Source: Escherichia coli (GTDB lineage Bacteria > Pseudomonadota > Gammaproteobacteria > Enterobacterales > Enterobacteriaceae). Taken from it: a stretch of DNA of 64,000 bases. Shown one piece after another: positions 1 through 4,768 of this stretch. The notes under the pieces were generated by a model. That model ran no database searches. It saw only the letters and a program-made list of their open reading frames with translations, and had not been told where the DNA came from. How positions within the stretch are numbered: the stretch's first letter is position 1; the number at the start of each line of letters is the position of its first letter. Location: assembly GCF_013315695.1 (NCBI RefSeq), contig NZ_CP054353.1; one strand, written 5' to 3'. Both the position numbers and the translations under genes were made by a program.

Positions 1-344
1 TACTCACACTTTCCGACGACGAAGCCCGTTCGCTGGGACTGAACGTGACACGTCTGCGCTTTGGATTAATTGTCTGCGCCACACTCATCACCGCCAGCAC
101 GGTAGCAATAGCGGGCATAATTGGTTGGGTCGGCCTGGTCGTTCCGCACATTGCCCGCTTGTTGACCGGTCATAACCATCAGCAGCTGTTGCCCATGGCA
201 ATGTGTACTGGCGCGATTCTGCTCCTGCTTACCGATACGCTGGCACGCAGCATTGGAACAACAGAAATCCCACTTGGCATTCTGACCGCTTTTGTTGGTG
301 CACCGTTTTTCCTGTTTTTGTTGTTACGCGGAGGTCGCCAGTGA
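1..344 (+). CDS. ABC transporter permease, FecCD/BtuC family, 3' partial (gene starts upstream of window)
   Basis: ORF 45..344 reads through from the window edge; hydrophobic C-terminus typical of FecCD permeases; stop overlaps the GTG of the next gene (gTGA). Confidence 0.75.
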   Translation, partial: LTLSDDEARSLGLNVTRLRFGLIVCATLITASTVAIAGIIGWVGLVVPHIARLLTGHNHQQLLPMAMCTGAILLLLTDTLARSIGTTEIPLGILTAFVGAPFFLFLLLRGGRQ

Positions 345-1099
345 CTTTGCTTGCCGTCCGTCATGCGTCTCTGGGTTACTCCCGCCATCCGGTGCTACGC
401 GACGTGTCCTTCACCCTGTCGCAAGGAACAATTTGTTGTCTGTTAGGAGCCAATGGTTGCGGCAAAACCACACTCATGCGCTCCATTCTTGGCGTTATAC
501 CGTTATTAAAAGGCGAGATCTTACTGGATAGCCTCCCTGTGCAGACACTCAGCCATCGCCAGCGCGCGCAGGCTATTGCCTGGGTGCCGCAGGCGCACGA
601 CGGCATTTTTGCTTTTAGTGTGCTGGATATGGTGTTGATGGGCCTGGCCCCCACCATAGGCGCTTTTTCCGTTCCCGGTAAGCAAGAACGCCTGAAAGCA
701 ACGGAGCAACTGGAAAAGCTGGGCATTTTGCATCTGGCGACACGACGCTGGAATACGCTTAGCGGCGGTGAACGTCAGCTGGCTTTAATCGCCCGTGCAC
801 TCGTCCAGCAACCGCGCTTGTTATTACTGGATGAGCCTGCCTCCAGCCTCGATTTCGGTCATCAGATCCAACTTTTGGACACGCTGGCGCAGCTCAAAAA
901 TAACGGCATGACAATGTTAATGTCGACTCATCATCCGCTCCATGCCAACGCCATTGCCGACAGCATTATCCAGGTAGAGCCAGATGGACGTGTAACACAA
1001 GGCTTACCGACCGAACAGTTAACAACGAAAAAACTGGCTGCCCTGTACCGGGTTTCTGCCGACCAGATTCACCATCACCTCTCTGCAATTAAGCACTAA
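341..1099 (+). CDS. ABC transporter ATP-binding protein (FepC/FecE/BtuD-like)
   Basis: Walker A GANGCGKTT, signature LSGGERQ, Walker B LLLLDEP; start taken as GTG 341 overlapping the permease stop rather than the longer ORF at 203. Confidence 0.85.
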   Translation: MTLLAVRHASLGYSRHPVLRDVSFTLSQGTICCLLGANGCGKTTLMRSILGVIPLLKGEILLDSLPVQTLSHRQRAQAIAWVPQAHDGIFAFSVLDMVLMGLAPTIGAFSVPGKQERLKATEQLEKLGILHLATRRWNTLSGGERQLALIARALVQQPRLLLLDEPASSLDFGHQIQLLDTLAQLKNNGMTMLMSTHHPLHANAIADSIIQVEPDGRVTQGLPTEQLTTKKLAALYRVSADQIHHHLSAIKH

Positions 1100-1108
1100 G
1101 GAAAAATC

Positions 1109-1921: not shown

Positions 1922-2772
1922 TTTTCCTTTCTCAGGCACAAATCGATGCGTTACTTCTGGAAGATATCCAGGGCGGTGACCTGACCACGCGAGCATTAAA
2001 TATTGGACACCAGCATGGCTATATAGAGTTTTTTCTCCGTCAGGGCGGCTGCGTCAGCGGAATTTCTGTCGCGTGTAAGATGTTAACTACGCTGGGATTA
2101 ACTATTGATGACGCGGTCAGCGACGGTTCTCAAGCGAACGCGGGTCAGCGGCTAATCCGTGCGCAGGGTAATGCTGCAGCACTTCATCAGGGATGGAAGG
2201 CAGTCCAGAATGTGCTGGAGTGGAGTTGCGGTGTTTCTGATTATCTCGCTCAAATGCAGGCGTTACTTCGTGAACGTTACCCTGATGGCAATATCGCCTG
2301 TACCCGAAAAGCAATTCCGGGCACCCGCTTACTGGCCTCGCAGGCAATTCTGGCTGCCGGAGGACTGATTCATCGTGCCGGATGTGCGGAAACCATATTA
2401 TTGTTTGCCAACCACCGTCATTTTCTTCATGACAATCAGGACTGGTCAGGCGCAATCAATCAGTTACGTCGCCACGCACCCGAGAAGAAAATAGTTGTTG
2501 AAGCCGACACGCCGAAAGAGGCAATCGCCGCGTTACGCGCGCAACCAGACGTACTTCAGCTCGACAAATTTAGTCCGCAACAGGCAACTGAAATTGCGCA
2601 AATAGCACCGTCGCTGGCTCCCCACTGCACGCTGGCTCTGACCGGCGGAATTAATCTGACAACACTCAAAAATTACCTCGACTGCGGCATTCGCCTTTTT
2701 ATTACCTCCGCGCCTTATTACGCGACACCGGCTGACATTAAAGTCAGTCTGCAACCCGCAGCCTCTATTTAA
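1918..2772 (+). CDS. ModD-like protein (quinolinate phosphoribosyltransferase fold)
   Basis: 284 aa ORF; N-terminal LLLEDIQGGDLTT and C-terminal GGI motifs resemble the NadC/ModD family; assignment by recall, not search. Confidence 0.5.
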   Translation: MIFLSQAQIDALLLEDIQGGDLTTRALNIGHQHGYIEFFLRQGGCVSGISVACKMLTTLGLTIDDAVSDGSQANAGQRLIRAQGNAAALHQGWKAVQNVLEWSCGVSDYLAQMQALLRERYPDGNIACTRKAIPGTRLLASQAILAAGGLIHRAGCAETILLFANHRHFLHDNQDWSGAINQLRRHAPEKKIVVEADTPKEAIAALRAQPDVLQLDKFSPQQATEIAQIAPSLAPHCTLALTGGINLTTLKNYLDCGIRLFITSAPYYATPADIKVSLQPAASI

Positions 2773-2797
2773 TTCTTTGTTAAACGGAATTTATTCT

Positions 2798-4768
2798 ATG
2801 AGACTCAAAAAACGTTATCTCTGCACAGCATTATCACTTGCCTTTACCCAGCAGGCCGTAGCGGCTCAGGAGAGTGACACGCTGACCGTATGGTCCAGTC
2901 CGGTATCATCAACGACGACCACCGTTCTCGATCAACCCACCATGAAGGCCCTGGATAAACAGAATGTCGCTCAGGCATTAAGTGTCGTCCCCGGCGTGGT
3001 GCTGCAAAAGTCAGGTAGCCGCAACGAAGAACAGGTCAAAGTTCGTGGCTTTGATAGTCGTCAGGTGCCGGTCTATTTCGACGGTGTGCCCATTTATGTT
3101 CCCTATGACGGCAACCTCGATCTGGCGCGGATTCTGACCAACAATTTGGGGGCAGTTGAAGTTTCCAAAGGGTATTCGTCGCTGCTTCAGGGGCCTAATC
3201 AGATGGGCGGAGCCATTAATATCACCACCCAGAAGCCAACAAAACCTCTGGAAGCAAATCTGGGATATCGCCAGGGATGGAGCCGTAGCCAGGACAATGC
3301 CTACGATATGCATGCTTCATTTGCCGCCAGCAGCGATCTGGGGTATTTGCAAGTCAGCGGTAGCCAGCTAAAGCAGGATTTTCTCGGCCTGCCGCATGGT
3401 GTAAATAATGATATTGCAGGCAAACACGGCAAGATGATTAATTCATCGGCTGATGATAAACGCGGCATTGTGAAGCTCGGTTTTACACCACGCGAAAACG
3501 ATGAATACACAGTGACTTACATTAAGCAGGATGGTGAAAAAGATAACCCGCCATACAGTGGAAATAGTGGTCAAAAATCACGCTACTGGCAGTGGCCAGA
3601 GTATGACAAAGAAAGTTTTTATTATCAGGGAACGACCCAACTAAACGATCGTTTTACCCTGAAAAGTCGGCTGTATCGCGACACCTTTGAAAATACGCTA
3701 ATGATGTACAACTCGCTGGCTGATTTGAAAAATAAAAAAGGCAGCTACAGCCATTATTCCGATTACAGCGACGGTGCCGGGTTACAACTGGCAGCCGATG
3801 TGCGTGAAAACGATCTGCTGTCGTTTGCCGTTAACTGGAAAGATGACGTACACCGGGAAAAAGGTGCGCCACACGCCGCTTACGATCGCTATGAAGATCG
3901 TACCTGGTCGCTCGCCAGTGAATATCAATGGGCTGCTGCCGATAATGTCGATGTCGTGGCTGGAATCAGCTATGACTGGCGCGATAGCGTAGAAGCGAAA
4001 AAACATGAGAAAGATGGCAGTATCACCCATTATGACGACAACAATCAGTCAGCTTTTAACTGGCAGGTGATGGGGAAATACCACTTTGCCAATGAAGACA
4101 CGCTGGCGCTTTCGTACTATGACCGCACACGCTTTCCGACGCTGAAAGAACGCTATACCACGTCCAAACCTGCGTATAACCAGATAGCGATTGTTAACCC
4201 GCAGCTCAAACCGGAACGCGCGCGCGGGGTGGATTTAACCTGGAATGGTGCCTTCACGCACGACTGGGGGTTTGAGGTCAGCGTTTACTATAACCGGGTG
4301 AGTGATGCCATCCTCTCGCACAATATCGATGCCGATACCATTCAAAATCAGAACAGCGGCACGGTGGATTACAGCGGTCTGGATGCCGGTATTAAGGGGA
4401 AAATCAGCAATATACTGGATGTAGGATTGAGCTACGCCCTGATCCACGCTGACGCCAAACGCAAAGACATCGGCAAGATAACCGATCTGCCAACGCAGAC
4501 AATGACCGCATGGATGACTCTCAAACCGTGGGAGCCGTTAAGCGTAACGCTGTCGGAAGAGGCGCGTTCCTCCAGCTACAGCAACAGTGACGGTTCACAA
4601 AAAGCCGCCGGTTTTGCGGTGACTCACATTCGAGCCGATTACACCTTAGGTCATGGCTTCAGCGTCAATGCGTCGGTCAATAACCTGTTTGATACCAAAT
4701 ATGCCTACAGTGAAGGGTTTATTGAAGAAGGTCGCAATTTCTGGGCAGGTATCGAGTATACGTTCTGA
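2798..4768 (+). CDS. TonB-dependent outer-membrane receptor
   Basis: 656 aa from MRLKKRYL with signal peptide ending AVAA/QE, plug-domain motifs, and terminal aromatic residue (..GIEYTF) typical of a beta-barrel. Confidence 0.85.
   Translation: MRLKKRYLCTALSLAFTQQAVAAQESDTLTVWSSPVSSTTTTVLDQPTMKALDKQNVAQALSVVPGVVLQKSGSRNEEQVKVRGFDSRQVPVYFDGVPIYVPYDGNLDLARILTNNLGAVEVSKGYSSLLQGPNQMGGAINITTQKPTKPLEANLGYRQGWSRSQDNAYDMHASFAASSDLGYLQVSGSQLKQDFLGLPHGVNNDIAGKHGKMINSSADDKRGIVKLGFTPRENDEYTVTYIKQDGEKDNPPYSGNSGQKSRYWQWPEYDKESFYYQGTTQLNDRFTLKSRLYRDTFENTLMMYNSLADLKNKKGSYSHYSDYSDGAGLQLAADVRENDLLSFAVNWKDDVHREKGAPHAAYDRYEDRTWSLASEYQWAAADNVDVVAGISYDWRDSVEAKKHEKDGSITHYDDNNQSAFNWQVMGKYHFANEDTLALSYYDRTRFPTLKERYTTSKPAYNQIAIVNPQLKPERARGVDLTWNGAFTHDWGFEVSVYYNRVSDAILSHNIDADTIQNQNSGTVDYSGLDAGIKGKISNILDVGLSYALIHADAKRKDIGKITDLPTQTMTAWMTLKPWEPLSVTLSEEARSSSYSNSDGSQKAAGFAVTHIRADYTLGHGFSVNASVNNLFDTKYAYSEGFIEEGRNFWAGIEYTF

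Follow-up and report, generated by a model that had tools for sequence, protein, structure and literature searches.

A six-gene operon beside ymgE in Escherichia coli as a probable molybdenum- or tungsten-acquisition system under predicted ModE control

What does the TonB-dependent uptake operon bordering ymgE in a large share of Escherichia coli genomes import, and which regulator governs it? The question is raised by a 64,000-nucleotide (nt) stretch of E. coli contig NZ_CP054353.1 (assembly GCF_013315695.1), here called the window, in which positions 1-4768 represent the 3' five-sixths of a plus-strand operon. Its six genes encode, in order, a binding protein, a FecCD permease, an ATPase, an S-adenosylmethionine (SAM) methyltransferase, ModD and a TonB-dependent receptor. 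The binding-protein gene lies upstream of the window, and the missing 5' part was supplied by NZ_OZ547117.1 (L001), a genome identical to the window over its first 5200 nt. An original prediction, made from the letters of the window, regarded the locus as an accessory importer of the metallophore or vitamin type. We instead consider it probable that the operon is a molybdenum- (or tungsten-) acquisition system spanning both membranes, switched off via ModE when the metal is plentiful. Four independent lines agree on a molybdenum- or tungsten-related system under ModE, and for this reason we predict both the control and the function: the conserved operator, the homology to MolBC-A, the presence of ModD, and the Mop and modE genes found as neighbors of related clusters.

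The operator falls outside the window and was therefore examined in near-identical genomes and in orthologous ones. For ModE of E. coli, the consensus has been published as ATCGnTATATA-N6-TATATAnCGAT (PMC545781). In an O157:H7 genome (L002 4293-4317), the sequence TCGATATATATGTAAATATATAGCG agrees with the core of this consensus, TCGnTATATA-N6-TATATAnCG, with 0 mismatches, and is located 25 nt before the ATG of the binding-protein gene, where shuffles expect 0.00 such sites; the genome identical to window positions 1-5200 carries the box with 1 mismatch. Across species, allowing at most 3 mismatches in 16 positions within 300 nt upstream, the box was recovered in 50 of 51 orthologous operons, 27 of them with at most 1 mismatch, while control patterns of the same composition (swapped GC, shifted AT and direct repeats) were recovered in 0 of 51. 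Beyond the operon leaders, only 10 further sites were detected in 1.29 Mb, several of them in front of modD or the methyltransferase gene where these are arranged differently. A second box is present in 26 of 26 operons where the gap between ModD and the receptor is at least 98 nt, and in 0 of 26 where this gap is at most 87 nt.

In aligned enterobacterial leaders, an invariant TTGA of the -35 element is followed after ~17 nt by the box, and then by CAGGA as the ribosome-binding site and by the ATG; thus the operator covers the -10 and start region. The same operator-over-promoter arrangement is found at modA. The operon and the ModABC/ModE regulon of E. coli share the operator consensus and its placement over the promoter of an uptake operon, although ModABC, a type I importer, differs in its unrelated permease and binding protein and has neither an outer-membrane component nor a methyltransferase. 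The position of the operator points to repression by molybdate-bound ModE. Control by Fur, Zur or a riboswitch, as envisaged for a metallophore or vitamin importer, did not hold up, with none of these elements present. Upstream matches to Fur, Zur and NikR operators are at chance level (at best 12-13/19, 14/23 and 7/12, respectively), and no Rfam family, including cobalamin, molybdenum cofactor (Moco) and thiamin riboswitches and other RNA families, matched at E<=1 across L002 3800-11300. The conserved control element is instead the ModE operator.

Individual leaders deviate from this layout. In NZ_OZ547117.1, an IS1 insertion element (L001 6552-7270) lies upstream of the operon promoter, with 6 nt between its end and the conserved TTGACA -35 element, and leaves the ModE box intact; the leader is uninterrupted in 2141 of 2144 operon-positive genomes, and the insertion is therefore rare. 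Affinibrenneria salicis harbors the complete six-gene operon twice on one scaffold (L044 and L045), with identical tblastn coordinates and identities, and its ModE-like box is located 253 nt upstream of the binding-protein gene, as compared to 10-46 nt otherwise. Upstream of the receptor gene in a further cluster (L073 ~3545-3575), the variant palindrome ATCGCTATTCA-N5-TGAATAACG resembles the ModE box with different inner half-sites, and so may represent a diverged operator.

The closest characterised transporter is MolBC-A, again in disagreement with a metallophore or vitamin importer. The full-length permease (gene at L001 8364-9344) has MolB (HI1471, 2nq2_A) as its best match among solved structures, with an E of 9.4e-65 over the full length, followed by FhuB (1.8e-50) and then HmuU and BtuC. 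For the ATPase, the best single-domain solved match is MolC (HI1470, 2nq2_C; E 8.9e-36), and for the binding protein the best characterised match is MolA, with a profile E of 3.9e-16 and a Foldseek E of 2e-16 at a template modelling (TM) score of 0.67. MolBC-A is the Haemophilus type II ATP-binding cassette (ABC) importer of molybdate and tungstate; its molABC genes adjoin modD, mol transcription falls when molybdate is added, and MolA is reported to bind free molybdate weakly, at ~100 uM (PMC3928620; PMC4031551). Hence, the H. influenzae system (HI1470/HI1471/HI1472, with modD as HI1473) and the operon have in common a type II importer with a FecCD-type permease, encoded next to modD. On the other hand, the Haemophilus cluster has no listed receptor or methyltransferase gene (PMC3928620), the binding proteins are ~20% identical, and MolBC-A is described as low-affinity, whereas the TonB-dependent front end of the operon suggests scavenging of a scarce species. 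In addition, a twin-arginine pair at residues 5-6 is nearly invariant in the binding-protein family, which suggests export by the twin-arginine translocation (Tat) route.

This homology also bears on the possibility of an iron-chelate or haem importer preceded by a palindrome unrelated to molybdenum. In RefSeq, the binding protein bears the name 'iron ABC transporter substrate-binding protein', and the permease, ATPase and receptor match siderophore, haem and B12 families below threshold. However, none of the NCBIfam iron families reaches its cut-off, the permease matches MolB clearly better than FhuB or HmuU, and the best Fur box is of a quality common by chance, with 28 sites of 12-13/19 in the 64-kb window. 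An unrelated palindrome would moreover have to recur as a ModE box in 50 of 51 operons and again before the receptor gene, in the company of ModD, Mop and modE. We regard an iron importer as very improbable, and the 'iron ABC transporter' name carried by thousands of RefSeq proteins is probably wrong.

ModD was identified with TIGR01334 at 500.2 bits, the cut-off being 178.85. It has the fold of NadC and retains most of the active-site residues, yet it remains below the NadC cut-off (TIGR00078, 134.5 bits versus 198.4) and its partners are molybdate transporters rather than NAD genes. When aligned to the quinolinate phosphoribosyltransferase of M. tuberculosis, 7 of 8 active-site positions are kept, with equivalents of T138, R139, K140, H161, R162, E201 and D222 preserved and R105 present as Lys, whereas the equivalent of K172 is an invariant Phe (Phe163). 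ModD also follows transporters of the ModA type (type I) in Yersinia alsatica, Cedecea, an Alcaligenaceae genome and a Treponema genome, and in Yersinia alsatica this arrangement is located behind a perfect ModE box. The association argues for a role of ModD tied to molybdate itself, and not to an organic cargo of the importer of the operon.

A related alternative accepts the control by ModE and assumes a cargo other than molybdenum, such as a pterin or a Moco-related cofactor, or that ModE activates the operon when molybdenum is sufficient. Bulky cofactors are the usual cargo of type II importers and TonB-dependent receptors, two enzymes are encoded in the operon, and the reportedly weak affinity of MolA for molybdate is compatible with another ligand (PMC3928620; PMC4031551). 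Nevertheless, ModD stands beside plain ModA-type molybdate transporters, a gene for a Mop molbindin directly follows the methyltransferase gene in a distant homologous cluster (L080), the Rfam search recovered no Moco riboswitch, and an operator between a conserved -35 element and the start codon has the geometry of a repressor. Taken together, we deem this alternative unlikely.

The methyltransferase belongs to a family of ~300 sequence clusters (at E<=1e-30). Searching with its AlphaFold model, which has a predicted local distance difference test (pLDDT) score of 90, returned only generic small-molecule methyltransferases with TM scores of 0.5-0.6, pointing to no substrate. The family possesses an invariant cysteine, Cys126, in the motif C-D-I-x-x-A-S-R-S-T. 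It may be asked whether the operon imports bare molybdate or tungstate, with the methyltransferase as a safeguard against toxic oxyanions (tellurite, selenite or arsenite) or co-entering sulfur ligands. SAM methyltransferases of the same fold detoxify metalloid oxyanions elsewhere, and the invariant Cys126 and a weak NCBIfam match to an ArsM-type model would be in line with such a function. Against it, no specific similarity to TehB, ArsM or TPMT was detected, the fold search having returned only the generic enzymes, and a safeguard leaves unexplained why the enzyme accompanies a type II transporter rather than ModABC. We consider this option quite unlikely.

Relatives of the core in other taxa are informative on which genes belong together. 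Shewanella has the order binding protein, permease, ATPase, methyltransferase and receptor, without ModD and with two perfect ModE boxes; one metagenomic lineage combines receptor, type II importer and methyltransferase with a small NTPase, and another has the order receptor, DUF2478, binding protein, permease, ATPase and methyltransferase. In L082, a divergent modE gene is present, and the ATPase and methyltransferase form one polypeptide; the ATPase of the operon is 43% identical to the N-terminal half of this natural fusion (P0277). The view that the enzyme genes are integral to the system is strengthened by the fusion and by the methyltransferase accompanying the transporter into Shewanella and metagenomic lineages, and the fusion also lends some support to the proposal that the cargo is modified on import. 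Conversely, methyltransferase-ModD pairs without a transporter occur in Edwardsiella, Leminorella and one metagenomic lineage, and those of most Edwardsiella species have a ModE box in front.

Further observations concern the genes of these clusters. Small P-loop NTPases (DUF2478 or NTPase_1/THEP1-like) are encoded in or beside clusters that lack ModD (L073 5556-6101 and L076 11940-12461), and they could there be alternative accessory proteins acting at the step of ModD. A fusion of methyltransferase and ModD was considered and rejected, as the long family members P0241 (560 residues) and P0242 (574 residues) proved to be tandem duplications of the whole methyltransferase domain in one polypeptide. 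The methyltransferase gene of the O157:H7 genome is interrupted by a stop codon (L002 7109-7921). An anti-phage defence system was likewise dismissed, with PADLOC returning only generic ABC-ATPase and methyltransferase matches.

The outer-membrane receptor possesses a signal peptide, has the sequence DTLTVWS as its TonB box (residues 27-33, nt 2876-2896) and ends in EYTF, with Phe as the final residue. NCBIfam TonB-dependent models match the whole protein, RefSeq names a plug domain, and the orthologues carry the Pfam plug and barrel; orthologues in the same cluster context are 65% (Shewanella) and 58% (L076) identical. None of the specific NCBIfam receptor models reaches its cut-off, with 127 bits versus 223.5 for the siderophore model, 125 versus 317 for haem, 80 versus 600 for B12 and 49.6 versus 472 for copper, in agreement with the earlier expectation that the receptor is no orthologue of a characterised K-12 receptor. 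Precedents for the uptake of metals other than iron through TonB-dependent receptors are OprC/NosA for copper, ZnuD for zinc and FrpB4 for nickel. As in the operon, the receptor gene is governed by the regulator of its own metal instead of Fur, and the receptor works together with an importer of the inner membrane; the operon is different in that its receptor is far below the copper model cut-off and the regulator is ModE.

The sequences themselves show the gene content and operon layout, the operator with its conservation, the homology to MolBC-A and ModD, and the joint inheritance and fusion of methyltransferase and transporter. These findings can be assembled into a mechanism, in which we infer that ModE represses the operon, what the cargo is and which reactions the two enzymes carry out. 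As intracellular molybdate falls, ModE would leave the promoter-overlapping operator and the six genes would be transcribed. The receptor, powered by TonB-ExbBD, would then bring a scarce molybdenum or tungsten species into the periplasm, where the binding protein with its twin-arginine signal would pass the cargo to a dimer of the MolB-like permease driven by the MolC-like ATPase, together a type II ABC importer. Next, the SAM methyltransferase may act at the cytoplasmic face on the cargo or an accompanying ligand, and finally ModD may handle the released molybdate downstream. Because the receptor, type II importer and methyltransferase are kept together and MolA is reported to bind free molybdate weakly, a complexed or modified molybdenum or tungsten species appears a somewhat more probable cargo than bare molybdate. 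The most specific version, a 'molybdophore-type' TonB-dependent pathway of enterobacteria, Shewanella and other proteobacteria, would import complexed or thiolated molybdenum or tungsten via the MolBC-like importer, with the importer-associated methyltransferase methylating the ligand or the species to release the metal and with ModD as a molybdate-handling protein; this we put forward as a tentative and rather doubtful extension.

Several points weigh against a ModE-repressed molybdenum or tungsten system. Molybdate is small enough for porin passage, and it is therefore not obvious why a TonB-dependent receptor would be needed. ModE is able to activate promoters too, so the sign of the regulation is read from the operator position only, and the consensus promoter scan, the promoter and terminator counts of which equal those of shuffles, found no good -10 hexamer and made no call at the operator. 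The E. coli-type ModE box is absent from the distant homologous clusters L078 and L080, which are GC-rich or distant. As to the transporter, the binding protein shares only the ~20% identity with MolA mentioned above, its closest structure, 4pag, is much closer than MolA and has no known ligand, and its RefSeq name refers to iron. The ATPase-methyltransferase fusion is known from one metagenomic contig. Lastly, the literature searched offered no expression, binding or transport results on the operon.

The layout of the genes supports a single transcription unit (Table 1). As read from the sequence, the permease and ATPase genes overlap by GTGA (341-344) and the methyltransferase and ModD genes by ATGA (1918-1921), a 9-nt gap with a Shine-Dalgarno sequence precedes position 1109, and a 25-nt gap precedes the receptor start at 2798, for which TTG at 2777 is an alternative. 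RefSeq annotation of NZ_OZ547117.1 has the same genes as those called in the window and, directly upstream of the permease, a 340-residue binding protein of the Peripla_BP_2 type, preceded by treA; a binding-protein gene had indeed been expected there. A scan with the ModD profile, using one genome per species, returned 68 loci, and the six-gene order is kept in ~50 species of Enterobacterales, including Escherichia, Citrobacter, Raoultella, Enterobacter, Klebsiella indica, Serratia, Pantoea, Erwinia, Pectobacterium, Affinibrenneria, Symbiopectobacterium, Proteus, Morganella and Providencia. The arrangement is therefore no chance juxtaposition, and the six genes form one operon, as originally proposed, on the grounds of both the overlapping codons and the identical order. 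A contrary suggestion, that the methyltransferase and ModD genes are unrelated neighbors with promoters of their own that were inserted into a transporter operon, could draw on the pairs without a transporter in Edwardsiella, Leminorella and a metagenomic lineage. But the overlaps and the gaps of 9-25 nt leave promoters no room, most of the stand-alone Edwardsiella pairs have the ModE box, and both the conserved order and the ATPase-methyltransferase fusion speak against it, rendering the suggestion barely credible. Downstream, the hairpin between the receptor gene and ymgE (-18.9 kcal/mol, z -3.33, with 1 of 200 shuffles as stable) is probably the terminator at the end of the operon, a role assigned by inference because the T-run terminator scan did not call it.

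Table 1. Coordinates of the operon features within the window.
Feature	Position	Strand	Basis
FecCD-family (MolB-like) permease, 3' end, last 113 codons	1..344	+	NCBIfam BtuC/FecD/FhuB-type permease matches; gene starts upstream of the window
ABC transporter ATP-binding subunit (MolC-like)	341..1099	+	Open reading frame and family match; GTG start
Class I SAM-dependent methyltransferase, distinct family	1109..1921	+	Pfam Methyltransf_25/31/12/11
ModD, quinolinate-phosphoribosyltransferase-like	1918..2772	+	TIGR01334, 500 bits versus cut-off 179
TonB-dependent outer-membrane receptor, 656 residues	2798..4768	+	Open reading frame and NCBIfam TonB-dependent models
Last 24 nt of receptor gene, right-hand deletion edge in operon-less K-12-like genomes	4745..4768	+	Megablast, alignment
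Hairpin, 11-bp stem, between receptor gene and convergent ymgE	4776..4805	.	RNA fold

Of 5426 complete E. coli genomes searched with megablast, 2139 contain the whole cluster, sequence type 131 (ST131) and O157:H7 among them, and it adjoins ymgE in every operon-positive genome examined. Operon-less, K-12-like genomes have treA-ycgY-ymgE at the locus, in agreement with the K-12 neighborhood given in the original prediction. In E. albertii, Citrobacter, Raoultella, Enterobacter and Intestinirhabdus, the operon is likewise flanked by treA and, at its other end, by ymgE or emtA. In E. albertii (L006 4939-5376), both ycgY and the operon are placed between treA and ymgE, and therefore E. coli lineages appear to have lost one of the two. 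Matches in operon-less genomes begin at query position 4745, and in a K-12-like strain (L003 ~5000-5024) the alignment reveals GCAGGTGTCGAGTATACGTTCTGA beside ymgE, encoding AGVEYTF and a stop codon. This 24-nt remnant of the receptor gene indicates that the K-12 arrangement was derived by deletion. Horizontal acquisition of the operon was discarded in view of the synteny in other genera and the scar in K-12-like strains. By this comparison of genomes, the locus is ancestral to the Enterobacteriaceae and was deleted in K-12-like E. coli, such that the term 'accessory' applies solely in the sense of variable retention and not of acquisition.

To our knowledge, accounts of molybdenum supply in E. 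coli end at ModABC and low-affinity anion transporters, and do not cover the outer membrane. If our interpretation is true, 39% of complete E. coli genomes would have a ModE-controlled, TonB-energised route. This would be a testable new element in the competition for metals within gut and urinary tract, where molybdoenzyme-dependent anaerobic respiration benefits enterobacteria. Among the carriers are ST131 and O157:H7, and outside E. coli the operon occurs in Citrobacter, Proteus, Morganella and Providencia. The long-unexplained ModD would obtain a defined genetic setting, the weak binding of free molybdate by the much-studied structural model MolBC-A would have a possible explanation, and a methyltransferase family of considerable size would have its chemistry tied to metal import. 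Should the molybdophore-type pathway be true as well, an imported complex would give up its metal in a new way, and TonB-dependent transport would gain a new substrate class. In the literature searched, the operon received one incidental mention, under the presumed O157 locus tag Z1966, called uncharacterised, and no TonB-dependent receptor was linked to ModE or MolBC, or to molybdenum or tungsten uptake in enterobacteria, with prior description elsewhere being possible. The genes are already annotated in thousands of genomes, under generic or probably misleading names.

Lesions were also noted in genes flanking the operon. The treA gene is annotated as frameshifted in both operon-positive genomes examined (L001 4540-6236 and L002 2322-4006), with breaks near codon 508 and near codon 75; as the positions differ, the lesions are independent. 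In the O157:H7 genome, an element of the IS3 family splits ycgR, two genes downstream of the operon (L002 11273-13320). Further along, the near-identical genome has a leucine-rich-repeat gene with an internal stop between cvrA and dadX (L001 19085-20521, corresponding to window ~10085-11521).

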